Shown here: positions 6,084 to 36,399 of the stretch, piece after piece | How positions within the stretch are numbered: the first letter of the stretch is position 1 | How the letters are laid out: each line of letters begins with the position of its first letter | Origin: an uncultured Clostridia bacterium | Lineage (GTDB): Bacteria; Bacillota; Clostridia; Christensenellales; UBA1242 | DNA length: 36,420 nt | Direction: 5' to 3' | Assembly: GCA_944381195.1 (NCBI GenBank) | Contig: CALWKH010000002.1 | Location: 1-36,420, forward strand | The notes under the pieces: generated by a model | Told to the model about the DNA's origin: nothing | Seen by the model: the letters and a program-made list of their open reading frames with translations, nothing else | Databases searched by the model: none | Translations under genes and position numbers: made by a program

Positions 6084-6153
6084 TGCTTTTAATTGTAGTA
6101 GTGATTTAATAAATAAGAAAGATGAAATTTTTTATATAACTTTATTTTTCTGT

Positions 6154-6214
6154 CAAACTTTTTTAAAGTCAAGACAGGTCAAGGAGGGTTTCTTGCGGGC
6201 GAAAGCCCACAAAA
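6154..6214 (+). repeat. Structured intergenic repeat, copy B
   Basis: caaacttttttaaAGTCAAGACAGGTCAAGGAgggtTTCTTGCGGGCgaaaGCCCACAAAAC. It has two GTCAAG motifs 10 nt apart, hairpin CAAGGA/TTCTTG, and hairpin GCGGGC-N4-GCCCAC. Confidence 0.8.
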
Positions 6215-6242
6215 CGCCCTCTGTTTTAAATATTTTTATATC

Positions 6243-6368
6243 GTGGGCAGAGTTCATAAAACACCCCCAACCTTTATATAAAAATACCGTGTGGGCAGAG
6301 CCCACAGAAAAAAACTATTTATAACGAATTTATAAAAAATATATGGTGTGGGTAAAACGCACAAAAAA
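6243..6368. repeat. Three short GTGGG-N3/4-CCCAC-type hairpin units following copies A and B
   Basis: GTGGGCagagttca (6243-6257, degenerate). GTGGGC-AGA-GCCCAC followed by an A-run (6291-6314). GTGTGGGTaaaaCGCACAAAAAA (6347-6368). Confidence 0.65.
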
Positions 6369-6929: not shown

Positions 6930-6959
6930 TTGACAAAATGGGGTAAAAATTTATATAAT
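6930..6959 (+). promoter_or_regulatory. Sigma-A-type promoter of the giant CDS
   Basis: TTGACA (6930-6935), 18-nt spacer, TATAAT (6954-6959). AGGAG SD at 6999-7003 and ATG at 7013. The leader is only about 45-50 nt, leaving no room for a riboswitch. Confidence 0.65.
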
Positions 6960-7012: not shown

Positions 7013-7090
7013 ATGAAAACAAATGTCTTAAAAGCCTTTATGCTTATTATGTTCGTGGGGGTGATGAGTGTCTTTGGACTTTCCGCCTGT
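7013..7090 (+). other. Lipoprotein signal peptide (SPase II) of the giant protein
   Basis: MKTNVLKAFMLIMFVGVMSVFGLSAC has a basic N-region, a hydrophobic core and the lipobox L-S-A-C. The invariant Cys is residue 26 (codon 7088-7090). Confidence 0.75.
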
Positions 7091-19000: not shown

Positions 19001-22000
19001 CTTTCACAGGTAACAGACCAGCGTATTCCAATTGATTATCAAGGTGGAAGTGGCCAATTCATTATTGCTGGATCCACATATACCATTGACTCACAAAATA
19101 ATGTTAGTGATTCAAGTGGATTTAGAATTGGAAATGCTTCTTCACCACTTAGAATTGGTGAATATATTTGTGTTAAAGAAAGCGGAGAAAACTATATGCT
19201 TGTTTCAGCGGCAAGTTTGCCAGAATCTTCTGCTGGTGGATTTATTGGATATGTTGAAACAAACACAAACAATGTTTTAAGCATAATTGGTTCTTATTTC
19301 CAAGGTAACATAACATCCTATCGTGATTCACAACTTAACCTTGGTGGTTTTGCAGGAAAGACTGCAAATACAACATATAATGAAAACTTTGTTGATGCAA
19401 CAATTAACATAAGTTATATTTCCAACCTTCTTTCTGCGGGTGGTTTTGCTGGAACGCTTATCAATTCAAATGTGAACAATGCAACAGCACATGGTGACTT
19501 TAACATAACGGTTGATTCTAACACAATGGATATCTATATTGGTGGTTTTGTGGGCAGAGCGACTGGAAGAATTACAAATGCTGTGACATATGAAAACATT
19601 AACTTTAATACCACTCAAAATTGGACAGCCACAGCAAGTGGAACAGACACTCAAATGGTTGCAGGCTTTGCGGGAAGTTTTGGAACAAACATGGATTCCA
19701 TTGAACTTATTAACATTGCTTCTCTCAGCACAATCAAAAATAACACACTTATGATTAACACTGACGGATTTAGTTTTGAAACACCAACCATAAGTGATGT
19801 AAACGGAACTTTTGCAACAAATGTTTATTTTGATGAATATCTTGCGTTGGCGGGAGACATCAACAATTTCAGCAGACAAAGTTGGGACTTCATTTTGGGC
19901 AATGGTGAGGTTGTCTATAACTATGTTGATGCATCAGATGCTTTCTCTGTTTTGAGCATTGGCAATAACAAATATCCGCGCGTTAACACAAACACAGGGC
20001 TTGTTACTGCACGCTATCAAGAAAAGTTTGATTCAATCTTTACAAACGCTCTTTCTGGAAGCAAGATTAACCCAATTCAAGTTTCTTCGGTAGATGACTT
20101 TAATTCTATGACAGGAGTTGTTGGAAACTGGTATATTCAATCAAACAACCTAAGTAATATTCCATTACATCAAACAAAAACGATGTTGGGCTTCTATAAC
20201 GGTGCAGGCTATACAATCACAGCGCAAAGATATGATTATATCTATGGAAGTGAGCAAAGCCTTATTGACATGGGTGTGTTTACCACAGTTGGTGATAAGG
20301 GTGTTATAAGTGGCGTAAATGTTGACTCAGTTATCTATCTTGGACTTCTTGCAACCGATGAGGGCAGAACAAATATTGGCTTTATTGCATCTGTTGTCAA
20401 TGAGGGCGGAATTGTGTTTGGAAGTGCATCTACAGGTCAAATCACCATTGTGTCAAGTCAGCAGACATCAAACATTATTGGTGGTTTGGTTGCGGTTAAT
20501 GACGGTCAAGTGTTCTCTTGTGCATCTAGCGTTGATATAACAGTTAACACAACAGGAACTGGGGAATATTTTGCTGTTGGAGGAATGGCTGGATATACCG
20601 AGGGTGGACACTCATATTATTCATATAGAGATTCATATTACAGTGGTTCAATCATTAACAACATCACATCAAGCAGTCAAGCGCTTGTTGGTGGAATAAC
20701 GGGAATGGTGGTTGGAGCAACAAGCACCACAGTTCAGGGTGCAAGTCTTTCAACATTTTTCATGCGCAACACCTATTCAGCAGCAAGTATCACGGGTAAC
20801 GGTGGAATGCTTGTTGGAGACATCATGGCAACACAAGAGTTTGTTGTGAATGTTTATTATGTTGACAAGATTAAAAACCCAGTTCAAGCAAAAACAATTG
20901 CAAATTTTGGAATTGGTTTCAATATAACAAATCAAAGAAATAACACACAAAACATCACAAGTGGCTTTGAATACAGCACAGGCTCATATTCAACGCCGAT
21001 GACCGAGGGGCTTTGGTCAAACACTGTTAACTTTAACTTTGGTTTGCCACATTTAAGAACAGAAACAAACTTGGTTGACACAGGAATTGGAACACCAGAA
21101 AAACCATATCTTCTTAACAGTGAAGGACAACTTGCTTGGGCTCTTAACAATGGTGGAACTGCAAATGTTAACTATTATTCTTTGACAAGAAATCTTGACT
21201 ATGGAATTTTGACAAACATTGACAGTTTGATTACCTCGGTTACCTTTAATGGCTATTTGCTTGGAAATGGATATTACATTTCAAACAGCACTGGCGTTTT
21301 GGTTGGTGCAAACAGAGGAGCAATCACTCAGGTTGGTTTTGACGGAACAATCACAGCAAGTGTTTTGGTAACAAACAATAACAGTGGAGTTGTTTCGGAA
21401 ATCTATACCACAAGAAGTGGAGACTCTGGCATTATTGCTTCTGGCACGGGAAGTGTTGTTGACTGTTTGACATATAACTATGCAATAGATAAAAATGGTG
21501 TTGCACGCACAAAAACTTCGGTGCAATATGCAACAACGCTTAATGATGAAAACTTTGACTATATTTCAACTTGGGTATTACAACCAACATCATCAAGTGC
21601 AACGGCAGCACTGACAACAGGTATGCAAAATCTTCGTGTGTTTGTTAACAGTTTGGAAAATGTTGACATCACAGGCATAACAGGAACTGCTGATGACACA
21701 CTTACACAAAACGCAGAAGGCTTTAATGAATATACATTACACATAACAACCAAAGAACAATATGCCGCAATTTTGCAATATATTATTAGAAGCGGTATGA
21801 ACGGCGAAAGTTATATCATAAATCTTGAAGCAGATTTGGATATAACAGGTCTTAAAATGGGTGATCTTGGAGACGGAAAAGACATTACTATTAGCATAAA
21901 TGGAAATAACCACACAATCTATAATGTGATTCTTGATAACAACGCATCAAGTTCATATGCTGGAATCATTGGTGAGTGGTATAGTGGAACAATTAGCGAT

Positions 22001-25000
22001 ATCAAGTTTAACCAAATGAATTTGATGACCACAACGACAGGTGGAATTGTTGCAGGAAGAAATAATGGTGGAGTAATCAGCAACATCACAATTACAAACA
22101 GCATTGTTGGTTCGGCAGTAGAATCAGCAGTTGTTGGAGGAATTGCTGGTTACAACAGTGGAACAATTGAAAAGGTTTCCATGAGTGATATAACTCTTAT
22201 TGCAAACGGTGGAACGGTTGGTGGTGTTGCAGGAAACAGCAGTGGAATCATTACAATCAGTTCGCTTGACTTAGAGGTTCTTCAAGGCACAACTCCACTC
22301 ACAGCAGTGGGTGCAGTTGCTGGAATTACTGAGGGAACAAGTAATAGCATTACTGTTGCTGGAAATGTTAATTTCTTTATTGACAGCCCAGTTAACATTG
22401 GTGGTGGAATTGTTGGAAAAGCATCAAGCGGTGGTGAAATCACAATCAATCAAGGTGCGACTGTAACCTTTGCAAACGCTGGTGGAACAAGTATTGGTGG
22501 AATTGTTGGAAATATCAGCGGAAGCGAAGCAATCAACGTTTACATTCTTGGTCAAAGCACGCTTACAACAACTTCATCAACAAACGTTGGTTCAATCATT
22601 GGTTTGATTGACGGTCAAGCCGAAACAACAATCTATATTGAACAAGGAAACCTTGCGCTAAGTGTTAGCGACAGCGAAAATGTTGGTGGTGTTGTTGGGT
22701 TCAGCCAGACAAGCAGTTTGACAATTCGAACACAAGATTCAACAGACTTCACAGCAGATATCACAATCACCTCTCTTGGTGGCAATGAAAATGTTGGTGG
22801 TGTGATTGGACGAAACACAAACACAGTAACAGGCTTTACAAATACTGGTAGCATTAATATCTCTGTTACAGACACCGATGTTTCAACAGGAGGTTTTGTT
22901 GGACATAACAGCGGAACCATTGAGGTAAATGTTTCTAATGTTACAATTACTGGCAATGCTTCATATGTTGGAGGAATCACCGGCTTTAACACCAGTAACG
23001 CAACAATCAGAGAAACAACATCTAACAACATTAATATTACGGCAGTAGACTATGTTGGAGGAATTGCTGGATATAATGATGCAGAAATTTATCAAGTAAC
23101 AGTTTCAAACCTCACAATTTCTGCAAACAGTTATGTTGGAGGAATTGCTGGTCTTAATGACGGAGATATTGGAAGAGATGGAGAGGACTATCGTATTCAA
23201 CTTAACAACATGAGCCTTTCGGCTTTAAACAGAGTTGGAGCAATCACTTCAATCAATAACAACACAGTTATGAATGTTATGATTTCCGACCAAAGTGGAG
23301 CAATCACTGTTACCTATCAAGGCGGACTTGATAGTGAAGAAAGTGGTGCGGGCTTTATGATGTCGGTTAACAATGGCTATATAAGCGGAATAACAGCAAC
23401 CTTTACGAGCACTGGAACAAGACTTGTTCTAGACAGTGCAATCACACACAACATTGGTGTTATAACGGGAGTTAACGCAAACAGCATAACTGCTTCAAGT
23501 GTTACAGGATTTACCTTGGCACTTAACAGCAATGTAACAGACTCGGGTCTTATTGGACTTAACTTCTCGAATTCACTTGTTGGCGGGGTTACTTCATCAA
23601 ACTTTGTTATAACTGGTGGAAGTGAAAATCTGGGACTTTTGGTTGGACTTAACCAAGGAACAGTCAGTGATTCATTTGTGAACAACTCACAAAACACCAC
23701 ATGGAACTTATCGGGTGTTACAGGTGCGGGTGCGGTTGGAAAGAATGAAAGTGTGATTTCTGGTCTAACAATCTCGAACAACCTTGTTATAACTGGAAAC
23801 GGGCAAAGTGTTGGTGCAGTTGCCGGAATTAACGAAGGCACAATCGGTGGCATTAACGCCGTTAGCAGTGTTTCAATTTCTGGAGATAGTGACATTGGTG
23901 GCTTTGTTGGACACAGCAGTGGCACAATTACTATTGCAAGCAACGCATCAGCAACAGTTACAAGCGTTACTGTGAGCGGTAACACGAATATTGGTGGCTT
24001 CTTTGGGTATAACGAAGGCAGTTTCAGAGGTAATGGTGAAGATAACGTTTCACAAAGCAATGTTTCTGGTGCAAGTAATGTTGGTGGCTTTGTTGGATAT
24101 AATGCAAGCAATTCTTCTATCACAAACGAAGGTATAACTGATGCAAATGTTTCAGGTGGAACGGTATCGGCATCTGCCGTTGGAGATGTTAGACTTGGAG
24201 GTCTTGTTGGATACAATACTTCAATCATCACAACTTCAACCGTTTATGGAACAAATGTCACAAGTTTGGTTGGTGAAGATTATGCAAGCATAACAGGTGG
24301 CTTTGCTGGTGAAAACGCAAGTGGAGCAAGCATCACAAGTCCAACTGTTACCTTCTCAAGCACAAGCAACATTATTGCAGGCGACTATGTTGGTGGAATT
24401 GCTGGACGCAATGGTGGTAGCATCTCAAGTGCAACCGTTTCAATTGACTCTGGAATTGTTACAACCAGCAAGACAATTGAAAGTGCAGGCGACTATGTTG
24501 GTGGAATTGCAGGAATCAACACGGGAACAATAAGTGGAACAACCACAGTTGCAACGGGCAATGTCTTTGATGCCTATGGTATCATGGGTGGAATTGCTGG
24601 TGAAAACTCTGGAACAATCACGGGAACGGTTCGAACAGGTGCAAACCTTGATATGCATATTGTTAGCGGAACAGGTAGTTCTGGAGACCGTAGACACTAT
24701 ATCTTTGGTGGAGTTGTTGGGCGCAACACTGGAAGCATTAGCGCAAGCATAACAATCAGTTCAACAAACATCAACGGTGGAATTATTCTTGGTGGAGTTG
24801 TTGGACTTAATGACGGAGGCAGTCTGCCATCAAGTGCATCTGGTGTTACCTTTGCTAACGATTTAACAATTACATTCTATGGTGCAATTCTTACAACTTC
24901 TGGAGATAATCAATATCTTGTGTTTAACAGCAGTCGTCCATGGTTCAGCGCGCTTTCTTCGATCACAAGCGGACAACTTTATGCTGTTTCATATGGAAAG

Positions 25001-25129
25001 ATAATTGGTTGTCAGGTTTCTGGAAGCACGGGCGCAGCATATTCAACAGCAAGCAGAGTTACCTTTGCGCTTCAAGGTAACACAACAAACATTGTTGACC
25101 CTGCTGCAATTGGTAACTATGGACCATAA
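7013..25129 (+). CDS. Giant (6,038 aa) lipoprotein-anchored surface protein: Ig-like domains plus seven GLUG-type parallel beta-helix cassettes
   Basis: Single uninterrupted 18,117-nt ORF with a promoter, SD and lipobox signal peptide. It carries Big_2-like signatures such as GTFTVTAHSAGEAVITLTSQNGV. Dozens of VGG[LI][AV]G-x-N-x-G-x-I turns match the GLUG motif. Cassette openers (W/Y-TPIG...F-x-G-x-F-x-G-N-G-x-x-I) and cassette caps (FDF..W....P.L) recur. Confidence 0.9.
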   Translation: MKTNVLKAFMLIMFVGVMSVFGLSACAGPRDGMAIEISSDQIIVDENGNRHITLTIEYDEQGNVVADSGQATLSARVINGDSSIDRTVEAVESSETQLFATTTYDTETQTNTVTIRAVSATAESDSSFVTIMSNEDNNVFERVYVEVVQKATSMDYADSLDVTTDASGDVINNLAVIKDVPFVFDTDSLFEFGTVGTESAVTPNIVYQIDLTGEIYQNGDSITIGSNQDVSQITITAFDQDDTSNTALQKTFVLDVLSNVSEDDVVINRTDTETLQADISSLTLLTSHTVSYNNATIEIVVEQNDEFDYSCEFVNSSQKIYLEVNSLYPAQNNVFTLQGIMSLPDVIEVNFIVSYAGILNSPEVVKTLAINVVDYPTEILINDTPQQYRRLTTLPASPEEYVGYYIAVNDDYVLVTDDNYSSLGIVAGYTVCYALQDFELVVFDAYEGEANGEELVVDLGRFTMGYGEYTISVDVDNADTQTLTFAQNLLINGEAMLVDDTTGTIEYLAPTFTSGDTLVIRLKEGFVGSGSLSLIITPTSQADTDNLLTRNLLLQFTTGITDIVVSENQLSADGELLLEVSEGQTANSTRDISFTVLPDEASMAGAYGSYVSASSSDSSVVTVSEVTTNQGVGTFTVTAHSAGEAVITLTSQNGVTEEIYVSVIATLNTFTLSAEEDGSSSNTTSISYKDDAIDSSKQTVDTIVIEEGKAFNLIYGIYPSNATITDISYFIGSLDENGAIISTQTPISESDIINIQDFQRQNGHGSNDPNNHGTGVEYVVAVISFDGLSDDGTQIVTKQITQTFAVDVYIPIKSLTANVTSFELLSGGVSGYYNQQQQEQEVELIASPDGTTVTTASAVWSMSAGASSYITVEAIDGFSEEENGVITGSKVLIRASNQIVGGSREVEVYATIQDRGRELSCTITVTVNPQILVSTLTIGNYDETNGFYFEETQGFSSLDQDAEGNELDRIATLNSTSQEDSAVSQVEYLNTRIQYSGSQIPTNSNLSYFLFDATVDQDGNWAVSDANRQYTSHSTSVWLGYDYAQSKYFVTPLASGYTILYIVPQDKLSNEESIVTYEELQGISNKLEVHITVADGYTTYYRLYDSEDILDLAGNSSAWDKNYYVMNDIEIRATSNWTPIGNSTQAFTGTITSFSDTASTIYGFNLNLAEGVLEDDNTYGIFGVFNGRLENVNIDITSLNINFPADLTEYYIGSLAGRVLSGAVIEDVTIRTRQVQLASSVLGIFANFYVGTIGLNESGNISNLSTDLTGVIESTNAETINLVMGGAIGLNRATFAEISGLAISAETNITGAYENSFSSSSAFGGAIGRNESAISLVSANGSIILGESTLANALGGLVGVSTADISNSTSSVSLANAINVGGIVGVATAINLSNVTYEIYSTSRDIALSSALTDQTQNIYVGGLAGLINGSASIAYSYVISFDSDKVISSSQNLGGLVGGSAGSLNINNSFFSANIDAQTARNVGGLVGTASIGATISNTFVTGTITGATTSNAGLFVGTVGANSGITTSYSAMTANIQLGGVISGNVTYRNTIIMRYGANWNEVSISGITYLNSTQMSTQSNFTGFDFTSTWAIADSATNSGHPILLNTDGSYLYPNIITSIVATANSGLESSNIFNTSSSTQVIIVLSDLANNQIRLADIFSFLVSPQQDISTVRVSVSAGTSSNAISIFGGSMLGNIYIEVLGVGVTSLTISSSTSSARCVVEIAVVNGFDDVYLYESIDKKQEADAADDEDVQETFNITAGSSVNILTGTTEEWYADFIDANGDSLNGNNVGGGMMFLLEEGYITIGDDDFSERTYSIEQILNISLAFSGDEQTVFRILSGDNNATVTESAGTYTFNAFDSFWGEIDANGDFTAGTVTGERTVTRSQIISAMTRTVLGSSSGLMDNGLNEMNATELEERANSLLDVFARFFANSSVFTQTIDEQMHIVFCVDNKPYFTVSQREGTSTRFVVVTKVFMSVENDSYISVSGTNRHEQLEVTLIPYYVGVFSEVNYSLLFNKSLTFFVVCYDGIENVTTNVGGTEENPTEIELSQNLSFTVTMQSDSPYDEQAGSLITITDIDTGEIVAQKNILDDLSSELMVMNGYVFDVDNLTASDGVITEQVLFGIDDNFKQQYKTAKTFEITVVNKMFVENGKQIERTFYVKINTQSVQSIDILHYADAELEGESQTTPGNYLTNAGAEPTNTIMAGEYGLLRINVFPNYADFDQITITSNVVENDVVSFVQRVAETISVNGANQTRYYYYEDGVTYIENGIIVAPVSNRDLTFDGNIYLQTLIAKQTTSAAGFIITVTISKDGMPDIVQEFNLAVDATANLIISYDATLNPESIEPEAYIAVGTGGSGETYASNRNEFTITQVGVFDVAPSVSIIDDETGGNVQIENVDGRYYIVVGNADIVGRHFTVSVSAVKYVNGYRRTISRAMNFTIVDYVLKDGSIVIDEAPNNSFSEPFADNANYKLTIRIDTTKINANTAISGVQTRINALQEDFNDGTINPWSLLDSSGNLISIEQGGTLGASYYYAVTNELSDPVYAAGTAPTGEQLSEYTVINNAFYLRLVVGSVNLDDNGWYICPVRQSSGNSIVLNAFSFLYTDSGLLTNELPSDASTYFTVPYQNISISFIQLSSTEEPIPINTLNELLSMEEGEHCRLMQDIDASGILWTPLNVAISSLDGNGHTITIGRFATLTGTETLPANYGLFGTVSENTLLKNITVKYSVTTEDDGLDQTESTHLNFGGIAGINNGIIVNCEVNSINNLNAVITISSLPLETNVFNVGGLVGKNNGDISNSRVEKISLTARGTVAGFAAVNNGAIASSYADNSIITNTSTTNTVGATAGFVGYNNANASITTSYAGGTYATLSTNEDGVSSLNVDTSVGLNGRTQQIVASVNTGGFLYSNAGSVTDCFAGVALSVEAQGSSSGGFMYENLTGGTVTRSYSVSSSPQNNYAHTPFVAPNSTYSALNTAEDDAFEDCFYYNSGYGQNGISLTEALGIERRTIEQFVNDNNDSIGVWDAYSISRYSSGDRTSGEEFTSVWTFLNSNNVYFNYNNFKASTQAQGTTSRLLGPRLVSADMIAVESWDLVGYDFDQKAYVYTRGDVSINGTNHAVTDHLTIVNNDIIVSPHIITSAEDLYDAMTADADTQNDNGIIDDWYRLAADIDLTELVALGYDMTTINTATFAGNFEGNGFEISGIDISVRTGESAGLFATIDSLNSSTNNYASVQNLSLVVQELAASSVSKVGALAGTINNAVLGNISVSPDSNTVTIVGYNFVGGVAGKIMGTSRASNLTSSISVTAVFGNSATNSLVYNEDLMRFYGLEEEGYNNDENILSYAGGIFGVVDLTPIIEDNFIISTDEYEESRLANLTVTGESKISGTTVGGVIGLLGTSSHVTNIKKLAENGSELKGSRYVGGIIGENHGYINFAQLLYTEEVQDRINSSQYVGSIDTEADFDLFVGTSKAIGGLIGINFGFTSDMQSGVVDNSQNRVAVKNSNAQIAGGLIGISVGGEITACFATASVRSATTGITGGAFGVIGGVENFSSDVQDPFEAISNKTAYEGMQYSSRFTIVSDIVALNNWSYSDYNILLNIQENGYLGGFVGVIYSERISEAHTSMTNEEYEELVAEGVGISASKEDNFYVSTIYNSQPQKTSNTSDGAVISAIGGRSSSTDLSDVATGLTRYEMWTYSYENNSGNEDVNTQVDRMFENWPVYDYGVLMDEESETFKIINYDSYGVPFYNPQQNPNRIEIWTVEDFLDMEDLLDANYVLMADLDFTGVDYTPIGTSSRPFTGTFTGTHYDEATNTNITHVLYNITMTTDLTYNTPAVGIFGYTSGATIQDVVINNINFSWVPSVFNSTAAAGFLIGIAEDTEVLNVQIVEDHSRVDATITDNSFSMNGVTYTISGNSISGSDGSRATITENSFTLNNKHYRLDTARNEISQVWTGENVLRSSANAVGGLIGNYSLKRQSSANLQNSFIEADIELSQVTDQRIPIDYQGGSGQFIIAGSTYTIDSQNNVSDSSGFRIGNASSPLRIGEYICVKESGENYMLVSAASLPESSAGGFIGYVETNTNNVLSIIGSYFQGNITSYRDSQLNLGGFAGKTANTTYNENFVDATINISYISNLLSAGGFAGTLINSNVNNATAHGDFNITVDSNTMDIYIGGFVGRATGRITNAVTYENINFNTTQNWTATASGTDTQMVAGFAGSFGTNMDSIELINIASLSTIKNNTLMINTDGFSFETPTISDVNGTFATNVYFDEYLALAGDINNFSRQSWDFILGNGEVVYNYVDASDAFSVLSIGNNKYPRVNTNTGLVTARYQEKFDSIFTNALSGSKINPIQVSSVDDFNSMTGVVGNWYIQSNNLSNIPLHQTKTMLGFYNGAGYTITAQRYDYIYGSEQSLIDMGVFTTVGDKGVISGVNVDSVIYLGLLATDEGRTNIGFIASVVNEGGIVFGSASTGQITIVSSQQTSNIIGGLVAVNDGQVFSCASSVDITVNTTGTGEYFAVGGMAGYTEGGHSYYSYRDSYYSGSIINNITSSSQALVGGITGMVVGATSTTVQGASLSTFFMRNTYSAASITGNGGMLVGDIMATQEFVVNVYYVDKIKNPVQAKTIANFGIGFNITNQRNNTQNITSGFEYSTGSYSTPMTEGLWSNTVNFNFGLPHLRTETNLVDTGIGTPEKPYLLNSEGQLAWALNNGGTANVNYYSLTRNLDYGILTNIDSLITSVTFNGYLLGNGYYISNSTGVLVGANRGAITQVGFDGTITASVLVTNNNSGVVSEIYTTRSGDSGIIASGTGSVVDCLTYNYAIDKNGVARTKTSVQYATTLNDENFDYISTWVLQPTSSSATAALTTGMQNLRVFVNSLENVDITGITGTADDTLTQNAEGFNEYTLHITTKEQYAAILQYIIRSGMNGESYIINLEADLDITGLKMGDLGDGKDITISINGNNHTIYNVILDNNASSSYAGIIGEWYSGTISDIKFNQMNLMTTTTGGIVAGRNNGGVISNITITNSIVGSAVESAVVGGIAGYNSGTIEKVSMSDITLIANGGTVGGVAGNSSGIITISSLDLEVLQGTTPLTAVGAVAGITEGTSNSITVAGNVNFFIDSPVNIGGGIVGKASSGGEITINQGATVTFANAGGTSIGGIVGNISGSEAINVYILGQSTLTTTSSTNVGSIIGLIDGQAETTIYIEQGNLALSVSDSENVGGVVGFSQTSSLTIRTQDSTDFTADITITSLGGNENVGGVIGRNTNTVTGFTNTGSINISVTDTDVSTGGFVGHNSGTIEVNVSNVTITGNASYVGGITGFNTSNATIRETTSNNINITAVDYVGGIAGYNDAEIYQVTVSNLTISANSYVGGIAGLNDGDIGRDGEDYRIQLNNMSLSALNRVGAITSINNNTVMNVMISDQSGAITVTYQGGLDSEESGAGFMMSVNNGYISGITATFTSTGTRLVLDSAITHNIGVITGVNANSITASSVTGFTLALNSNVTDSGLIGLNFSNSLVGGVTSSNFVITGGSENLGLLVGLNQGTVSDSFVNNSQNTTWNLSGVTGAGAVGKNESVISGLTISNNLVITGNGQSVGAVAGINEGTIGGINAVSSVSISGDSDIGGFVGHSSGTITIASNASATVTSVTVSGNTNIGGFFGYNEGSFRGNGEDNVSQSNVSGASNVGGFVGYNASNSSITNEGITDANVSGGTVSASAVGDVRLGGLVGYNTSIITTSTVYGTNVTSLVGEDYASITGGFAGENASGASITSPTVTFSSTSNIIAGDYVGGIAGRNGGSISSATVSIDSGIVTTSKTIESAGDYVGGIAGINTGTISGTTTVATGNVFDAYGIMGGIAGENSGTITGTVRTGANLDMHIVSGTGSSGDRRHYIFGGVVGRNTGSISASITISSTNINGGIILGGVVGLNDGGSLPSSASGVTFANDLTITFYGAILTTSGDNQYLVFNSSRPWFSALSSITSGQLYAVSYGKIIGCQVSGSTGAAYSTASRVTFALQGNTTNIVDPAAIGNYGP
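7091..10300 (+). other. N-terminal stalk of the giant protein: multiple Ig-like (Big_2-like) beta-sandwich modules
   Basis: The region is rich in T/V/S/I alternating strands. The clearest Big_2-like unit is at about 8790-9010 (ISFTVLPDEAS...SSSDSSVVTVSE...GTFTVTAHSAGEAVITLTSQNGVTEEIYVSVI). Similar strand endings occur at about 7350-7410 and 9715-9800. Boundaries are approximate. Confidence 0.55.
10306..11838 (+). other. Beta-helix cassette 1 of the giant protein
   Basis: Opener YYRLYDSEDILDL...NWTPIGNSTQAFTGTI (W1137 at 10421), followed by GLUG-type turns (MGGAIGLN, FGGAIGRN, LGGLVGVS, VGGIVGVA, VGGLAGLI, LGGLVGGS, VGGLVGTA). Cap FDFTSTWAIADSATNSGHPILLN ends at about 11838. Confidence 0.6.
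14948..16270 (+). other. Beta-helix cassette 2 of the giant protein
   Basis: Opener EEPIPINTLNELLSM...ILWTPLNVAISSLDGNGHTITI (W2679 at 15047), turns FGGIAGINNGIIVNC and VGGLVGKNNGDISNS, and a cap region FTSVWTFLN...LGPRLV. Confidence 0.6.
16424..18280 (+). other. Beta-helix cassette 3 of the giant protein
   Basis: Opener SPHIITSAEDLYDAM...ATFAGNFEGNGFEISGI (about 16590-16640), turns VGGVAGKI, YAGGIFGV, VGGVIGLL, YVGGIIGENHGYI, IGGLIGINFG and AGGLIGIS, and a cap-like ENWPVYDYG...GVPFYNP. Confidence 0.55.
18290..19990 (+). other. Beta-helix cassette 4 of the giant protein (contains a 29-aa tandem duplication insert)
   Basis: Opener RIEIWTVEDFLDMEDLLDANYVLMADLDFTGVDYTPIGTSSRPFTGTFTG (PIG at 18395-18403), turns VGGLIGNY, AGGFIGYV, LGGFAGKT, AGGFAGTL and IGGFVGRA, and cap SWDFILG...NKYPRVN. 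Confidence 0.6.
20069..21063 (+). other. Beta-helix cassette 5 of the giant protein
   Basis: Opener NPIQVSSVDDFNSM...GFYNGAGYTITA (G4397 at 20201), turns IIGGLVAVNDGQV, VGGMAGYT and VGGITGMV, and cap LWSNTVNFNFGLPHLRTE. Confidence 0.55.
21083..21590 (+). other. Beta-helix cassette 6 of the giant protein (short)
   Basis: Opener GTPEKPYLLNSEGQLAWAL...FNGYLLGNGYYISN (G4751 at 21263) and cap ENFDYISTWVLQP. Confidence 0.5.
21731..25129 (+). repeat. Beta-helix cassette 7: roughly 1,130-aa near-continuous array of GLUG-type turns to the C-terminus
   Basis: Opener YTLHITTKEQYAAIL...ISINGNNHTIYNV (G4964 at 21902). Several dozen 20-28-aa units of the type VGGIAGYNSGTIEKVSMSDITL follow. There is no LPXTG, SLH or choline-binding anchor, and no TM segment at the end (...IVDPAAIGNYGP). 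Confidence 0.7.
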
Positions 25130-28894: not shown

Positions 28895-29689
28895 ATGGAA
28901 AAGATAAAACTTATCATAATTGACGACAGTCAGCAAATGAAAACCATGGCAAGAGAGCATTTCTCTGAGCATGAGAAAATTGAACTTATAAAGGAAATCA
29001 ATGACGGACAAAATGCCGTGCAAGAGGTAAAAGAGGCTTGTCCTGATGTTGTTCTTCTTGACCTGGTGCTACCGAACAAAGACGGCTATGCTGTTTTGGA
29101 GGAGTTAACCGAACTTGAAAAAGTTCCAAAAATTATCATTTGCACCGCCCTTTCAAGTGCAAATTTTGTGCACAAGGCAATGCAAATGGGTGCAAACTAT
29201 TTTCTTGTTAAGCCTTGCAGTGAAGGCGACCTTGACCGTGTGATTTTTGAGCAAACCGAAACTTCTCCGTTAAGCAACAAACAACAGGCAAAGGTTCAAG
29301 CGGTTATGGAGCAATATGGCAATGTGGGAAGAATTACGCACAAAAACATGGACGAGCGCATTTCAAACATTTTTATCACAGTTGGAATTCCCGCACATAT
29401 CAAGGGGTATCAATTTTTGCGTGAGGCAATCAAAATGACAATTGATACGCCAGACATCATCAACAGCATAACCAAGAAACTCTATCCAAACATTGCAGAG
29501 CGTTTTTCAACCAGTCCAAGCAAAGTTGAGCGTGCAATCAGACACGCAATTGAAGTTGCGTGGAACAGGGGTAAAATTGAAAACATCAATTCTGTTTTTG
29601 GACTGCCTGTTTATGATGCAAACGAAAAGCCAACAAATGGTGAATTTATCGCCTTGGTGGCTGATAAGATGCTGATTGAGTCTGCTTGA
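28895..29689 (+). CDS. spo0A: Stage 0 sporulation response regulator Spo0A
   Basis: The receiver domain has KLIIIDDSQQ and DVVLLDLVLPNKDG (phospho-acceptor Asp). The Spo0A-specific C-terminal DNA-binding domain has ISNIFITVGIPAHIKGYQFLREAI and SKVERAIRHAIEVAWNRG. GGAGGA SD at 28880-28885. Confidence 0.95.
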   Translation: MEKIKLIIIDDSQQMKTMAREHFSEHEKIELIKEINDGQNAVQEVKEACPDVVLLDLVLPNKDGYAVLEELTELEKVPKIIICTALSSANFVHKAMQMGANYFLVKPCSEGDLDRVIFEQTETSPLSNKQQAKVQAVMEQYGNVGRITHKNMDERISNIFITVGIPAHIKGYQFLREAIKMTIDTPDIINSITKKLYPNIAERFSTSPSKVERAIRHAIEVAWNRGKIENINSVFGLPVYDANEKPTNGEFIALVADKMLIESA

Positions 29690-29715
29690 AGGTGCCAGTT
29701 GGGCGCCTTTTTTTG
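29690..29715 (+). terminator. Intrinsic terminator after spo0A
   Basis: AGGTGCC-AGTT-GGGCGCCT (one G-U pair) followed by T6. Confidence 0.7.
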
Positions 29716-31218: not shown

Positions 31219-33714
31219 ATGAACAAAATTTTTATCATTGATGGAAACAGTTTGATTAACCGTGCATACTATGCGCTTCCACCACTTGCCACAAAAAGCG
31301 GGGAGGTGTATAACGCAGTTTTTGGTTTTGTTAACATTGTGATTAAACTTATCACTGAAAACAATCCAACGCATTTGGTTGTTGCATTTGATGCGGGCAA
31401 AAAAACTTTTAGAAATGACCTTTTTGAAGGCTATAAGGCAACGCGCAAGAAAATGCCAGACGAACTGGCAAGTCAACTTGCTCCACTTAAAGATTTGCTT
31501 CACAAAATGAACATCAAAACAATTGAAAAACTGGGAATTGAGGCTGACGACATTATTGGCACTTTGGTTAAGAATTTAAACTATCCGTCAGTTGTTGTAA
31601 CGGGTGACCGTGACTGCTTGCAACTGATTGACTCAAATTGCGAAGTTTGGCTCACTAAACACGGAATTTCAAGCATTATAAGTTATAACGAGCGCCAACT
31701 TAAAGAAGATATGGGGCTTTCTCCATTGCAAATTATTGACCTTAAAAGTTTAATGGGCGACAGCAGTGATAACATTCCTGGTGTTGCGGGAATTGGGGAA
31801 AAAACTGCAAAAGACTTGCTTGCAAAATATCAAACCTTGCAGGGTGTTTATGATAACATTGATAATGTCACTGGCAAAACAAAGGAAAAACTTTTGGCGG
31901 ACAAAGACATGGCTTTTTTAAGTTATCGCCTTGCCACCATTGATACGCAAGCAAAGTTTGATTTTTCGCTTGACGAAATGAAAGTTGTTATGCCTTTTTC
32001 GCAGGAAGTTTTTGAAACCTTTAAGAAATATGAATTTAATTCCCTCCTTAAGCGTCAAGACCTTTTTGGCGAAGTGAAAGAAAAAGCAGAGCAGGTTTTG
32101 GTGCAAACAGAGGACATTGAAGATATAGAAAAACTTCACGAACTTTGCAAAGAAAAAGCAGTGGCATTTTTGGAAGATGAAAGCGGAGTTTTTGTGGCGT
32201 TTGAGAAAGACAAACAGTTTTTATATCACGGAAAGTTGGAAGATTTGAAACCACTTTTTCTAGATGAAAGCATAAAAAAAGTTTTCCACAAAAGTAAACC
32301 ACTTTTCCACAAACTTGACGGGCAAATTGATGACAATTTTTATGATGTGAGCATTGCTGTTTATCTTATCAACAGCAGTGCAAAAACAGACGACTTGGGC
32401 AGTATTTTGAATTTTCTTAACATCAATCAAACAGAAAGCGCATCGTCTCTTTTGTGTGCCTTTAAAACTTCGTGGAAAAAGTTGTTGGAACTTAATCTTG
32501 GAAATCTTTATTTCATGTTGGAATTGCCACTTGTGCGTGTGCTTTATCAAATGGAAAAAGACGGCGTTTGCGTTGACGAAAAGGTTTTGAACGAATTAAG
32601 TGAAAAATTTACGCAAGAGATTTTTGAAATCAAAAAGCAAATTTTCTATCTTGCAGACGAGGACTTCAATCTTAATTCGCCAAAACAACTTGCACACATT
32701 TTGTTTGATAAACTTAAACTTGAAGTGAAGGGCAACAAAAAGCAATCAACCTCGGTTACTGTTTTGGAGGCAATTAGAGGCAAGCATCCAATTGTTGAAC
32801 TTTTGCTTCATTATCGCACCATTTCAAAATTGCAATCGACCTACATTGACGGGCTTAGACCATTTATCAAAAATGGAAAAATTCACACCACCTTTAATCA
32901 AACACTCACCGTGACGGGCAGACTTTCCAGTGTTGAACCAAATTTGCAAAACATTCCAATTCGCACAAAAGAGGGCAGAGTTTTGAGAAAGATTTTTACC
33001 GCAAGCGAAGGGTGCGTGCTGATTTCTGCCGACTATTCACAAATTGAACTTCGACTTTTGGCACATTACAGCGGGGACTTCAATCTTTTGGAGGCATACA
33101 GGCAAAACAGAGACATTCACGCAGTGACTGCTTCGCAGATTTTCAACACTCCGCTTGAAAAGGTAACAAGTGAACAGCGCAGAATGGCAAAGGCGGTGAA
33201 CTTTGGAATTATCTATGGCATTTCGCCCTATGGTTTGTCTGTTGGTACGGGCATTTCTGTTGCTGAGGCAAAGAGATATATTGATAAATATTTTGAGATG
33301 TATCCAACAATCAAAAGTTTTCTTAATAAATCGGTGGAGGAGGTAAAGGAAAAGGGCTTTGTTTCATCTTTGTTCGGCAGGCGCAGAAACATCACCGAAG
33401 TTTATTCCACTAACCACAACGTTGCAATGTTTGGCGAGCGTGCGGCAATGAATATGCCACTTCAAGGCACAGCATCTGATATCATCAAACTTGCCATGCT
33501 TCAAATGAGTCAGCACATTGCGGGGCTGAAACTGAAAAGCAAACTTATTTTGCAAATTCATGACGAACTGATTTTTGATGTTCCAGAGGAAGAAAAAGAG
33601 CAGATGATGAAAATTATTAAAAGCACCATGGAAAATGTGGTTAAACTTGATGTGCCTCTTGTGGCAGAAGTATCTGTTGGCAAAAACTGGTTTGAATGTG
33701 ATGAAAAGAAGTAG
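31219..33714 (+). CDS. polA: DNA polymerase I (family A) with N-terminal 5'-nuclease domain
   Basis: 5'-nuclease motifs are IIDGNSLINRAYYA, GDRDCLQL and GVAGIGEKTA. Polymerase motifs are A (DYSQIELRLLAH), B (RRMAKAVNFGIIYG) and C (QIHDELIF). The middle domain lacks an obvious DxE ExoI motif, so the protein probably has no proofreading activity, as in Bacillus or Taq Pol I. Confidence 0.95.
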   Translation: MNKIFIIDGNSLINRAYYALPPLATKSGEVYNAVFGFVNIVIKLITENNPTHLVVAFDAGKKTFRNDLFEGYKATRKKMPDELASQLAPLKDLLHKMNIKTIEKLGIEADDIIGTLVKNLNYPSVVVTGDRDCLQLIDSNCEVWLTKHGISSIISYNERQLKEDMGLSPLQIIDLKSLMGDSSDNIPGVAGIGEKTAKDLLAKYQTLQGVYDNIDNVTGKTKEKLLADKDMAFLSYRLATIDTQAKFDFSLDEMKVVMPFSQEVFETFKKYEFNSLLKRQDLFGEVKEKAEQVLVQTEDIEDIEKLHELCKEKAVAFLEDESGVFVAFEKDKQFLYHGKLEDLKPLFLDESIKKVFHKSKPLFHKLDGQIDDNFYDVSIAVYLINSSAKTDDLGSILNFLNINQTESASSLLCAFKTSWKKLLELNLGNLYFMLELPLVRVLYQMEKDGVCVDEKVLNELSEKFTQEIFEIKKQIFYLADEDFNLNSPKQLAHILFDKLKLEVKGNKKQSTSVTVLEAIRGKHPIVELLLHYRTISKLQSTYIDGLRPFIKNGKIHTTFNQTLTVTGRLSSVEPNLQNIPIRTKEGRVLRKIFTASEGCVLISADYSQIELRLLAHYSGDFNLLEAYRQNRDIHAVTASQIFNTPLEKVTSEQRRMAKAVNFGIIYGISPYGLSVGTGISVAEAKRYIDKYFEMYPTIKSFLNKSVEEVKEKGFVSSLFGRRRNITEVYSTNHNVAMFGERAAMNMPLQGTASDIIKLAMLQMSQHIAGLKLKSKLILQIHDELIFDVPEEEKEQMMKIIKSTMENVVKLDVPLVAEVSVGKNWFECDEKK

Positions 33715-33799
33715 AAAACTGATGTTTTTGTATAATGAATAGGTATTTTGATATTTTTGTTTTTTAATTAGATACATTAAATAAGGAAAAAATAAAAAT

Positions 33800-33823
33800 G
33801 GACTTCAAAACAGTCCCTTTTTA
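33800..33823 (+). terminator. Possible terminator after polA (weak)
   Basis: GGACT-tcaaaac-AGTCC followed by CTTTTTATT. Confidence 0.35.
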
Positions 33824-33901
33824 TTAAAAGCATATTTGGAGCATATTGATAATTTAAGAAATTTATTTGCAAAAGTGTGAGGTGTAAAAAATTTTTGTTT
33901 T

Positions 33902-33968
33902 GAAAGAATGTTTGGAGCCAAGATAGGTCAAGGAAGGTTCCCTGCGGACTTGAGCGGAGCTCAAAAAA
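33902..33968 (+). repeat. Structured intergenic repeat, copy F (3' hairpin replaced)
   Basis: gaaagaatgtttGGAGCCAAGATAGGTCAAGGAAggTTCCCTGcggacTTGAGC-GGA-GCTCAAAAAA. The terminal hairpin is TTGAGC/GCTCAA instead of GCGGGC/GCCCAC. Confidence 0.75.
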
Positions 33969-34041
33969 GGTTTTTTAATTCTGGTAATGCTTTAATAAAG
34001 AAAAAAGATAAAATATTTTTTCTATTGCCATATTCATCTCT

Positions 34042-34113
34042 CAAACTTTTTTGGAGGCATGAATGGGCCAAGGGGACAACTCTTCTTGCGGGCGTCAGCC
34101 CACAAAACACCCC
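34042..34113 (+). repeat. Structured intergenic repeat, copy G
   Basis: caaacttttttGGAGGCATGAATGGGCCAAGGGGacaactCTTCTTGCGGGCgtcaGCCCACAAAACACCCC. Confidence 0.8.
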
Positions 34114-34137
34114 TTCATTGTAAAAAAGTTTTATTGT

Positions 34138-34152
34138 GTGGGTGGAACCCAC
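34138..34152. repeat. Short hairpin unit (GTGGGT-GGA-ACCCAC) following copy G
   Basis: It holds the same position relative to G as GTGGGCagag... (6243) holds relative to B. Confidence 0.6.
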
Positions 34153-34231
34153 ATAAAAAATTAAATTTATTTATAAATATAAAAAATTTTAAAAAAAATT
34201 AAAAAATTTTTGAAAAACTTATTAAAATCGT

Positions 34232-34261
34232 TTGACAAACTTGGTTTTCATATATTATAAT
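34232..34261 (+). promoter_or_regulatory. Sigma-A-type promoter of the candidate sRNA
   Basis: TTGACA (34232-34237), 18-nt spacer, TATAAT (34256-34261). Confidence 0.65.
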
Positions 34262-34267
34262 AATGAA

Positions 34268-34352
34268 TGCACAATGCGAGGTGCTTTTGCACTTCACTGG
34301 CTTGCCAGCATGCCTTGTGCGTTTGAGGGAAGATTTCTTTCCTCTTTTTTTT
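34268..34352 (+). ncRNA. Candidate stand-alone small RNA of about 85 nt: three-way junction plus strong intrinsic terminator
   Basis: The consensus promoter lies immediately upstream. P1 pairs GAATGCACAA (34265-34274) with TTGTGCGTTT (34315-34324). P2 is AGGTGC-TTTT-GCACTT (34279-34294). P3 is CTGGC-TT-GCCAG (34297-34308). The terminator is GAGGGAAG-ATTT-CTTTCCTC (34325-34344) plus T8 (34345-34352). No plus-strand gene follows, because the next gene converges. Confidence 0.55.
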
Positions 34353-34523
34353 GTTCATTTTCTAAAAAGTTAAAGTAATTATAAACATTTAACATTATGG
34401 TGTGCAGTTCATTATTTATTGCTTTGTTTTTATGTTTTAGTTTGCCCCATAATTTTAGACGCTTACAAAAGTAGATTTTAAAAAATTTTATGCTTGTCTA
34501 ACATTGACTTTAATTTGAAAAAC

Positions 34524-34593
34524 AAAAAACTTTATCAGTTTTAAGTGATTTTAAATTTTGTGCTATATCACTTTTTATTTGATAAAGTTTTTT
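34524..34593 (-). terminator. Long imperfect hairpin downstream of the 594-aa CDS (probable terminator)
   Basis: AAAAAACTTTATCA (34524-34537) is the exact complement of TGATAAAGTTTTTT (34580-34593). It encloses a second inverted repeat AAGTGAT/ATCACTT. The outer A/T runs give U-tracts on either strand. Confidence 0.45.
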
Positions 34594-34614
34594 GATTGTA
34601 AATTTAAAAATGGT

Positions 34615-36399
34615 TTAAGATATAGAAACCTCGCTGTCTTTCGAATTGATTGATTTAATTTTTTTGGTTTCTTTTTGTTTTTCAAAGTGATTGATAATAT
34701 CTTCTTGTTCGGTGCTTTCATTTTGATTTTCTGCTGGTGACATTTGCCCGTTTTGGTCTGTCACTATTTCACTTTTAAGAACATCATCATTAAGGCTGAT
34801 GCTTTTATCAAGAATGATGCTTTGGATTGGCACATCTTGTGCCCTTGCAATGTTGATGATAACTCGGGTCTGTTCTTTGGTGAGAGTGAAGTGTCCTGTT
34901 ATGCTGTCTGTAAGAGAGGACAAAAACTCTTGAGGGCTGTCATAGTCTCTATCTTCAAACTTTTTGCCGATGTCAACCTTGATTTCTTTTCCTTTTTCAC
35001 CTGACACGGAATGCAAAATAACCGAATTGTCCGTTTGAATAAAACGCACCTTTGCTGTAACCAAGGCGTTGTCAAGCCAAGTTTTGTCATCAGTCGGGGT
35101 GCTTTCTTGCGCAAACTCTTCATATGTTCCGTCAGGCAGAAGAATGCACCTTGAAAGGTTTTCACTTTTTATAAGATTATATTCGGCAGTTCCAACATCA
35201 AGGTATTTATTGTCTTCAACAAAAGGTATAATCTCATCTGCCATGCCTTTTTTTGTTTTGAAAACAACTTTTGCTGTGCTTCCCAAATTTGTAAACACAG
35301 AATTTTTTGGGAAAACAATTCCGCGATAATGCGATTTTCTTATTCTACTCACAACATCGTCAAAACTTTCTGTTTTGCCGTTTAAAAGTTCTTTTTCACT
35401 TGTGTTACTGTATTTCACAACATCGTCAAACGAAACGCCTTTTTCCTTGTATTCATGCCAAAGTTTTTCATCTTCTTTTTCAAATGCAGTCTTTTTTGCG
35501 TTTTCAATCTCTGGCTGTAAAAATGTTTTGATGTCCTCAGCGTCGGGCAGGGGGATAAACCTGTTTTGTGCGTGTTGCTTTTTTGAACCTGTTACGCCAA
35601 GTGCAAGTGCAAGCGCCATGATGCGAGAAATGGTTTCAGCACGAGGGTTGTCATTCATCCAATCGGTTGTGCGCAAAAGATATTCAAGGTTGCCATGCTC
35701 AAAAAGTGCAGGTGTTGTCAGCCTGCTTTTGACACCAAGCACGCTGTCTGTGAAAAGATTGAGGGTGTTTTTATATGCTTTTAACTCACCAACGCCGACA
35801 TAGTGTTGGGGGTCATCCTGAAAAAAATCTTTTTTGTAGGAAAAGTCAAATATTTCGTCATTAAGTGATTTCACAAAAAAACTGGTGTAAAGATTGTTCG
35901 ACTTGTCAAAAGGTGCATAGCCAATCACAAAAATTTGTTTGAGTGCTGTTCTGATTTCGTCCTCTTGATATCCAAGGTCATGTTGCATGGTGTCTGCAAG
36001 GTGAGTGATTGTTTCGTTTACAACATCTTGCCCATAGCAGTGAATAAGAATGTTTATGTCTCTTAAATTCTCGCACGCCTTTTTAACTGGCAAACGCTCG
36101 CCGTTTTTGTCTGTTACTCGTGGGATAAAAACTTTTTTTGCAAGTTCTTCAATCTCTTTTTTGTTCATTCGTCCAACAATGGTGTGCTCACTTGCACCAT
36201 AGCGCACCGAAAAGGTGTCGATGTATTCATCTTCTTCTTTCACTCCAAGAAGCCTAAAAGACATCTTCGCCAAAAAGTTTGCAAACTGATTGCTGGTTGT
36301 TCCATCTCCGCCAAAGCAAAGAAGAATTGGTTTGTCAGTTGGAATGTCACTTAGCTCGACATTTTCCCAGCCAAATTTGTTTTTTTCTGTTTTTGGCAC
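34615..36399 (-). CDS. Hypothetical cytoplasmic protein (at least 594 aa), family not recognised; N-terminal part possibly alpha/beta-hydrolase-like
   Basis: Long ORF with ordinary composition. The first in-frame start is GTG at 36399, but the frame stays open to the window edge (36420), so the true start may lie outside the window. PILLCFGGDGTTS and ILIHCYGQD are placed like the oxyanion-loop strand and nucleophile elbow of alpha/beta hydrolases. That reading is speculative. Confidence 0.75.
   Translation of the reverse strand: MPKTEKNKFGWENVELSDIPTDKPILLCFGGDGTTSNQFANFLAKMSFRLLGVKEEDEYIDTFSVRYGASEHTIVGRMNKKEIEELAKKVFIPRVTDKNGERLPVKKACENLRDINILIHCYGQDVVNETITHLADTMQHDLGYQEDEIRTALKQIFVIGYAPFDKSNNLYTSFFVKSLNDEIFDFSYKKDFFQDDPQHYVGVGELKAYKNTLNLFTDSVLGVKSRLTTPALFEHGNLEYLLRTTDWMNDNPRAETISRIMALALALGVTGSKKQHAQNRFIPLPDAEDIKTFLQPEIENAKKTAFEKEDEKLWHEYKEKGVSFDDVVKYSNTSEKELLNGKTESFDDVVSRIRKSHYRGIVFPKNSVFTNLGSTAKVVFKTKKGMADEIIPFVEDNKYLDVGTAEYNLIKSENLSRCILLPDGTYEEFAQESTPTDDKTWLDNALVTAKVRFIQTDNSVILHSVSGEKGKEIKVDIGKKFEDRDYDSPQEFLSSLTDSITGHFTLTKEQTRVIINIARAQDVPIQSIILDKSISLNDDVLKSEIVTDQNGQMSPAENQNESTEQEDIINHFEKQKETKKIKSINSKDSEVSIS

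Follow-up and report, generated by a model that had tools for sequence, protein, structure and literature searches.

A covarying three-way-junction small RNA family in uncultured gut Clostridia and its convergence with a two-gene operon in related genomes

The 36,420-nucleotide stretch of DNA analyzed here (the window) comes from the genome of an uncultured gut Clostridia bacterium and carries, downstream of polA, a compact plus-strand unit at positions 34232 to 34352 in which a consensus promoter, a three-way-junction RNA and an intrinsic terminator follow one another. We find that this predicted small RNA (sRNA) is a divergent member of what is very probably a real family of structured RNA genes, with 17 full-length units in 14 genomes. 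The family is previously undescribed and so far is found only in one family of uncultured gut Clostridia with genomes of ~1 Mb. To our knowledge, structured sRNAs are almost unknown in such organisms, which are common in animal guts.

In six of these 14 genomes, the RNA gene is convergent with a two-gene operon whose 3′ end it overlaps; the larger of the two products is a basic protein (hereafter the cassette and the cassette protein). Judging from the sequences, the interpretation we favor, although tentatively, is that the RNA family serves as an antagonist (antitoxin-like) or regulator of this cassette.

Results

A conserved unit with covarying homologues

A BLAST search over 41 relatives of the window genome (G000; ~1.0 Mb, 91% complete, 97 contigs) returned one true match, a unit of 90% identity that also lies downstream of polA in a sister species (G008). 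When the two species are compared, identity is 87% across the promoter, 86% across the junction RNA and 96% across the terminator, versus 40% and 46% in the flanks. The RNA unit is thus a conservation island. Five of the seven differences between the two copies occur at unpaired or loop positions. A covariance model built from these two sequences alone recovers, at 39.3 bits, a homologue from another genus (G096) whose P2 and P3 hairpins have other sequences that still pair, and which has its own promoter (TTGACT-17-TATAAT). The fact that the unit is kept in the sister species while its flanks are not, together with the existence of covarying homologues, indicates that it is more than a chance arrangement.

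The models were rebuilt twice (R2 and R3) and were applied to the genus, to relatives of G096, to genomes of the wider family and to the neighborhoods of the linked protein gene. Full-length matches were present in two of 13 genomes of the genus. The covariance-model search of the family took in 151 genomes, and a search of 401 family genomes with the exact canonical pattern of the P3 motif identified 12 sites in 10 genomes, versus none with the reversed control. Beyond the 17 full-length units, G460 has a 3′ fragment of the RNA where its contig ends, and G471 has a weak match (22.6 bits) that retains the exact P3 motif. Other weak family-level rows (20–30 bits) were counted as non-members; the four that were inspected aligned poorly.

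No convincing match to the covariance models was found in 146 genomes from other families of the order. These order-level searches covered 151 genomes each, and all matches scored at most 31.6 bits and were short or driven by the terminator; two (G031 and G238) were judged by alignment and the others by length and score. A strict promoter-plus-core pattern proved too strict because the P1 core covaries. It found four stretches in genome contigs (two on contigs like those of G008 and G096, and two by chance), six in metagenome contigs (five at 13–21 bits, representing palindromic TGCA repeats, and L069, which was unmatched at E ≤ 1) and none in viral contigs. Neither the cassette protein nor the canonical unit was found in a phage collection, and the protein was not found in a plasmid collection. 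In IMG/VR, the P3 motif occurs in eight contigs, about the number that we estimate for chance, and none of these passes the model; the profile of the cassette protein has no match there. The 20 sequencing runs that carry the window stretch are DNA metagenomes, mostly labeled as chicken gut, and six runs from two studies carry half or more of the sampled words of the stretch.

Architecture of the RNA

The window sequence from 34262 to 34352 (91 nt) folds with a minimum free energy (MFE) of −38.7 kcal/mol into a three-way junction followed by the terminator. Its z-score is −5.51 relative to 200 dinucleotide shuffles, none of which folds as well. The 10-bp stem P1 pairs GAAUGCACAA (34265–34274), which includes the family-wide core GCAC (34269–34272), with UUGUGCGUUU (34315–34324). 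A 2-bp extension, P1b, pairs GC at 34276–34277 with GC at 34312–34313 and closes the junction. Within the junction lie the P2 hairpin GAGGUGC-UUUU-GCACUUC (34278–34295) and the P3 hairpin CUGG-CUUG-CCAG (34297–34308), all on the plus strand. The original prediction had drawn a fold of about 85 nt with a 10-bp closing helix and two hairpins. The closing helix and both hairpins are borne out, and for the second hairpin, given there as CTGGC-TT-GCCAG, a 4-bp stem closed by a CUUG loop is the better reading.

Single-sequence MFE predictions yield a common architecture for all 10 of the 10 units folded, in which a P1 stem of 4–7 bp (core GMAC/GUKC), a 3×3 internal loop and a P1b stem of 2–4 bp lead into the junction, which is followed by a short linker and the terminator. 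The junction carries a P2 of variable sequence and length and a conserved P3 (GUCGG-CWUNGUU-CCGAC). The letters of P1, P1b and the junction in the window RNA are of the type seen in G096 and G394, and its P3 is a shortened, divergent form of the family hairpin.

In the alignment of the 17 units, 86.9% of the cells are paired, and both-sided changes are seen in 27 of the 31 pairs. These values are reached by none of 500 column shuffles, and only 39–55% of cells are paired when the partners are slid by one to three columns. RNAalifold independently gives the same helices, with compensatory changes in 21 of 25 pairs. In the P1 core, C-G is replaced by A-U in seven of the 17 units. The first pair of P1b is G-C in 16 of 16 units, whereas the second appears as C-G, U-A, A-U or U-G. 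All seven modeled pairs of P2 and all eight stem pairs of the terminator change on both sides or covary, and 100% of the terminator cells are paired. Thus, the helices first proposed from a single sequence are maintained in relatives through compensatory changes.

Promoter, start site and terminator

As predicted, the unit begins with a consensus promoter, in which TTGACA (34232–34237) and TATAAT (34256–34261) are separated by 18 nt. This promoter scores 12/12 at 34232–34261, and only two other sites in the 36.4-kb window do so, at 6930 (+) and 4592 (−). Each family unit has its own promoter, with TTGAC[AT] in 16 of the 17 and a −10 hexamer 16–18 nt farther on, and each of the 17 has its own terminator. 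The spacing to the −10 hexamer places the probable 5′ start of the window RNA ~6–8 nt beyond it, at 34267–34269, and in homologues the GCAC or GAAC of P1 starts 7–8 nt past the hexamer. If this assignment is right, three or four pairs at the outer end of P1 may fall outside the RNA.

The intrinsic terminator (34325–34352, plus strand) is formed by an 8-bp stem (GAGGGAAG/CUUUCCUC) with an AUUU loop and is followed by T8. Its hairpin (34325–34344) includes four G-C pairs and sits directly after P1. The claim that this is the best terminator in the window is arguable. It has the 8-bp stem and T8 as stated, and is the only window terminator whose T8 is unbroken, but in a window-wide scan it ranks second in its half, below the spo0A terminator (29688–29710; nine pairs, five of them G-C). 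GC content is elevated locally, at 0.40 over 34250–34349 versus 0.12–0.27 in the adjoining spacer, in agreement with what had been noted before.

Tests against known RNA families and coding genes

The RNA was originally thought to match no known family, and this assessment holds. Rfam 15 gives no match at gathering score over the whole window, and when the threshold is relaxed to E ≤ 10 over 33700–34650, only chance-level rows appear (E 0.9–9; the best scores 20 bits, against gathering scores of 90 or more). For six homologue loci, the rows obtained are tRNAs and chance-level microRNAs only. No tRNA or tmRNA is detected by ARAGORN, and the models for 6S RNA (RF00013) and signal recognition particle (SRP) RNA (RF00169 and RF01854) have no match in the window genome. 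Topical literature searches (Christensenellales with noncoding RNA, not by motif sequence) retrieved no paper that describes the RNA.

A divergent SRP RNA was considered, as G000 has no SRP match. However, a separate RF00169 SRP RNA is present in 40 of 40 relatives (39 of these score above the cut-off); one of them is G008, which carries the sRNA as well, and this candidate was ruled out. The missing SRP RNA of G000 probably reflects an assembly gap in this 91% complete, 97-contig genome. A small protein-coding gene was likewise rejected. The frames differ between G000 and G008 by a 2-nt indel, and the P1-to-P3 distances in five units (31, 28, 32, 26 and 25 nt) differ by non-multiples of three, so no reading frame is conserved.

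RNA anti-CRISPRs mimic the CRISPR repeat of the host. We rejected such a function, as the 29-nt repeat of the array in G068 (20 copies) is unlike P3 or any other part of the RNA. That genome has a CRISPR array of 20 repeats with a spacing of 64–67 and a cas10/csm-like operon (L143 18130–19412 and L114 76–7357). Its three tandem sRNA units are found just upstream of cas10 on the other strand, beside tRNA genes and the type III cas operon; the cas names were assigned from motifs in translations.

A convergent protein cassette in relatives

No neighbor of the RNA is universal across genomes. In five genomes (G096, G083, G374, G427 and G544), the RNA converges on a gene for a basic protein of ~124 aa and overlaps the coding 3′ end by 17–23 nt, such that the conserved C-terminal KKGRK and the stop codon of the protein are encoded antisense to the RNA terminator. 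In G460 the contig stops within the RNA, and G163 retains a fragment of the protein gene at the end of a contig. The cassette proteins are 122–128 aa in length and rich in lysine and arginine. When one 122-aa protein was used as query, the protein family was recovered in eight of the 401 genomes, six of which have the convergent RNA. Of the other two, G418 encodes a homologue of 34% identity (here the RNA lies 800 nt farther downstream, on the same strand) and a second copy that has no RNA nearby, and G437 encodes a distant homologue, also with no RNA nearby. Co-occurrence of the protein and the exact P3 motif is seen in four genomes versus 0.2 expected (10 and eight genomes in 401), a comparison in which related genomes are not independent.

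Public data hold ~47 clusters of the cassette protein, none of which is named. An AlphaFold model made from a 27-sequence alignment has a mean predicted local distance difference test (pLDDT) value of 73.8 and a predicted template modeling (pTM) score of 0.70. The top Foldseek rows for this model are MazF proteins with weak E-values (0.7–5). In a structure search against 48,161 chains, the top 10 are all Kid, MazF or CcdB proteins (Z 6.2–7.4, root mean square deviation 2.5–3.3 Å, 78–91 residues), and two toxins of type III systems, CptN and AbiQ, rank 11 (Z 5.3) and 46 (Z 4.2), respectively. The model thus suggests a Kid/MazF/CcdB-like fold and marks the protein as a candidate toxin, which we regard as a lead rather than a finding.

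Directly upstream in the operon is a small basic open reading frame (ORF) of 87 aa (G096, G460 and G544) or 42–47 aa (G083, G374 and G427). These ORFs share a motif and belong to a family of 51 clusters, again none named. In G427, no operon terminator is seen before the RNA gene. The leader of the operon contains a conserved long hairpin with a U-run after it (ACUGGUGUCGAAAGG...CCAGUUUUUAUUUUU) at L146 1240–1310 (G427), with counterparts at L111 (G083) and L125 (G374). This hairpin sits just upstream of the small basic ORF and could be an attenuator or a second small RNA. Separately, another contig of the window genome carries at its end (G000:C32:11560–11682; L159) a fragment that matches the C-terminal part of a canonical PemK/MazF toxin (PF02452, 32 bits) and whose sequence is unrelated to the cassette protein.

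Solo and tandem copies

The RNA occurs without the cassette in G000, G008, G047, G123, G394, G402 and G068. Six-frame profile searches beside these solo units detected no remnant of the protein gene. Two of the genomes have tandem copies: G068 has three consecutive units and G402 has two, and every one of these units is equipped with a promoter and terminator of its own. The original prediction had described the window RNA as an orphan. It does stand alone as a transcription unit, yet with at least 17 units now counted in the family, of which it is a divergent member, it is no true orphan. Among the 13 contexts open to judgment, 12 have a gene past the terminator that converges on the RNA. The exception is G394, where the RNA lies among trx and nifS genes and nifS is co-directional, ~400 nt away.

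Some solo loci have further features. A second promoter-plus-hairpin unit (TTGACT-17-TATAAT, with ~90 nt to a T-run) is present in G047 (L072 ~243–360 and 770–850), and by eye its two direct copies flank a GC-rich segment that adjoins the sRNA. In G008, a tandem repeat with a period of 72 nt (2.7 copies, 94% matches) lies past the sRNA, near the contig end (L002 1793–1983). The sRNA pair of G402 is within ~1.3 kb of a Spo0A fragment, which is probably a coincidence.

Neighborhood of the window copy

The window copy lies in an AT-rich spacer of 900 bp between the end of polA (33714) and a minus-strand gene for a 594-aa protein (34615–36399). As noted before, no plus-strand ORF is found 3′ of the RNA unit in the window, and this next gene converges on the RNA locus, ending 262 nt away. 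The 594-aa protein has no family in Pfam, PHROGs, NCBIfam or PADLOC, and a protein atlas offers only weak leads, to lipase-like or alpha/beta-hydrolase-like clusters. The synteny downstream of polA is not kept in five other species of the genus, and the boundaries of an insertion could not be drawn.

A GC-richer block between polA and the sRNA promoter (33880–34170) is a dispersed repeat with 13 matches in the window genome, the best of which (window 6023–6247) is 70% identical over 232 nt. This ~290-bp block is extra in G000 and is missing from the shorter polA-to-sRNA spacer of G008; a similar GC-rich stretch is seen by eye near the sRNA in G047, on the opposite strand (L072 ~400–560). Elsewhere in the window, a single plus-strand ORF of 6038 aa occupies 7013–25129, with one of the other 12/12 promoter-like sites (6930–6959) 5′ of it, and a Spo0A gene (receiver domain plus Spo0A_C) is present at 28895–29689 (+) in this ~1-Mb genome.

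Discussion

The linkage seen in relatives suggests that the ancestral or principal job of the RNA family concerns the MazF-fold cassette. As we envision it, a consensus sigma-A-type promoter would start transcription at or just before P1, the resulting ~85-nt RNA would fold into P1, the 3×3 internal loop, P1b and a three-way junction with P2 and P3, and the strong intrinsic terminator would end it. The RNA would then act in its folded form, recognized in trans through P3 and the junction and not only as a cis-antisense transcript, because solo copies keep promoter, fold and terminator and can multiply in tandem. The RNA may well be trans-acting or protein-binding, as originally proposed; the cassette link, seen only in relatives, lay beyond the reach of the original prediction. 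Since the cassette is not found in G000, the window copy may act in trans on another partner, or as a stand-alone ‘immunity’ RNA.

Several observations weigh against this interpretation. The proposed partner is missing from seven of the 14 genomes, the window genome included: the 91% complete G000 has no match to the cassette protein or its profile, and the protein query gave nothing convincing in G008, G047, G123 or G394 and yielded in G068 just one row, of 13 bits. The window P3 is divergent, though P3 is the most conserved element of the family, and this divergence may reflect a changed partner. Two of the differences between G000 and G008 break pairs: at the base of P2, a G-C pair becomes A·A, and in the outer part of P1, U·G becomes U·U. 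The alignments used for counting pairs were fitted to the model structure and their sequences are kin, and thus the shuffle controls overstate the support. The cassette protein is unmatched in Pfam, PHROGs, NCBIfam, PADLOC and the sequences of the PDB, and its fold match is middling, as Z values below 8 may reflect a common arrangement according to the note of the search tool itself. Furthermore, if the conserved small ORF encodes a protein antitoxin, as it could, the RNA would have a different role. Finally, no RNA run is listed among the runs that carry the window stretch.

The main rival explanation, which we consider rather unlikely, is an ordinary trans-acting sRNA, unrelated to the cassette, that base-pairs with chromosomal mRNAs by way of an exposed loop or linker, and for which the tail-to-tail layout would be a harmless site only. 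The stand-alone unit with its strong promoter and terminator suits this explanation, as does the fact that half of the members are solo among core genes (polA in G000 and G008; trx/nifS in G394). Six contexts without the cassette are also convergent, as expected if such spacers tolerate the unit. However, the usual conserved single-stranded seed is lacking, the only strongly conserved loop being C-W-U-N-G-U-U, whose middle position is free. BLAST against its own genome reveals no extended complementarity, the best matches being 15–27 nt in the promoter or T-tail, and the co-occurrence of protein and exact P3 motif described above, counted among kin, far exceeds chance.

A more specific version of the favored role is one in which the RNA and the operon constitute a new toxin-antitoxin or defense module. 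In such a module, a single-copy three-way-junction RNA would neutralize the basic protein or proteins by direct binding, using type III logic with a new RNA architecture and a new gene order, tail-to-tail with the MazF-fold operon. The invariant ACA at the boundary of P1 and the internal loop might serve as a pseudo-substrate, and solo and tandem copies would be ‘immunity’ RNAs kept to disarm incoming cassettes. The conserved junction and P3, the basic proteins, the MazF-like fold and the multiplied copies would fit type III-like action. In this full form, we judge the proposal improbable, slightly more so than an ordinary sRNA.

Less probable still is a cis-antisense antitoxin of the type I kind that acts only by pairing with the 3′ end of the convergent toxin-like mRNA, the way that SR4, SR6 and RatA work in Bacillus, with the window copy as a decaying remnant of a locus that has lost its toxin gene. 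The 17–23-nt overlap of the coding 3′ end in the cassettes is what such an arrangement would produce, the mRNA of G427 may read through the RNA gene in antisense given that no operon terminator precedes it there, and Firmicutes type I pairs overlap at their 3′ ends, according to an excerpt of one account (PMC5848175). Yet the consensus promoter, the fold and the terminator are all retained in solo copies, which are conserved relative to their flanks, tandem arrays occur, and no remnant of the protein gene lies beside solo units. Moreover, pairing with the ribosome-binding region of the toxin-like gene is no better than with shuffled sequences (a fraction of 0.40–0.80 of shuffles is at least as good in five cassettes), and the basic protein of ~124 aa differs from the small hydrophobic peptides that type I toxins usually are, as described in an excerpt of another account (PMC6563280).

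We regard as quite improbable, and marginally more so than cis-antisense action, that the family is a selfish or neutral promoter-hairpin-terminator unit, for example the scar of a mobile element, with no function at the RNA level. The distribution is sporadic (two of 13 genomes in the genus and ~3% of the family) and contexts vary. Mobile-element genes are found nearby in some cases (a serine recombinase and helix-turn-helix genes in G047, and a P-loop ATPase cluster in G471), and the window copy adjoins a dispersed repeat. Countering this, four helices are kept by compensatory changes across the 17 units, no flanking inverted or direct repeats are common to the units, no copies were found in the phage, plasmid or IMG/VR collections, and most genomes carry a single copy. 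Last, a cis-acting leader, riboswitch or attenuator, or a small protein-coding gene, is very improbable, just as the original prediction held for leaders and riboswitches: the junction does directly abut the terminator, as in riboswitch expression platforms, and nifS is co-directional ~400 nt on in G394, but neither the window nor 12 of the 13 judgeable contexts has a co-directional gene, no Rfam riboswitch matches, and the frames are not conserved.

Whatever its role, the sequences alone suffice to define the family, by its promoter, its fold, the covariation and its terminator. The repeated tail-to-tail association with an unannotated gene pair of MazF-like predicted fold provides a concrete, testable hypothesis. 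We know of RNA-neutralized toxins only from types I and III and a small number of further types, in each of which the genes are arranged in one set way. If the proposed connection is true, a convergent partner made of a single three-way-junction unit would widen this picture, and the solo copies would illustrate ‘immunity’ conferred by an orphan RNA. Should the RNA prove to be an ordinary regulator instead, it still represents a clean new family of the kind cataloged in Rfam, with a covariance model ready.

Comparison with known systems

Multicopy Firmicutes sRNAs such as LhrC and csRNA are short and terminator-ended, have strong promoters, are sometimes found in tandem, and carry conserved C-rich or anti-Shine-Dalgarno loops. 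The RNA family described here resembles them in its short terminator-ended form, strong promoter and occasional tandem copies. It differs from them in that it has no C-rich or anti-Shine-Dalgarno loop, and its conserved parts are the junction and one hairpin.

With the type I systems of Firmicutes (SR4/bsrG, SR6/yonT and RatA/txpA), the relatives that carry the cassette offer a parallel in that an RNA of ~100 nt runs toward a protein gene and into its 3′ end. The partner here is instead a basic protein of 122–128 aa, solo and tandem copies persist with no cis target, and the antisense overlap is missing in the window. In addition, no Rfam match to RatA or other antitoxin RNAs was obtained, and neither strand has a small hydrophobic ORF that G000 and G008 have in common.

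Type III antitoxin RNAs are processed by a partner toxin of Kid/MazF-like endoribonuclease fold and inhibit it by forming a complex. In a published description (PMC3401426), the toxin gene of type III systems is preceded by short repeats in a tandem array that runs in the same direction, with a terminator between. The present family shares with ToxI, CptI and antiQ (paired with ToxN, CptN and AbiQ) a folded RNA with its own promoter and terminator that is tied to a basic protein of, tentatively, predicted Kid/MazF-like fold. Outside the Kid/MazF/CcdB group, the cassette protein model matches CptN first, and the RNA is present in tandem copies in some genomes. The differences are that the RNA here is a single three-way junction of ~60 nt, with one unit in the window and not a repeat array, that it lies tail-to-tail with the protein gene with an overlap at the 3′ end of that gene, and that promoter and terminator are present separately in each tandem copy. 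The toxin-like gene is also preceded by a small basic ORF here, and no such toxin-like protein was found in the window genome. We therefore assign the RNA to neither type I nor type III, and consider that it most likely works like an RNA antitoxin or regulator.

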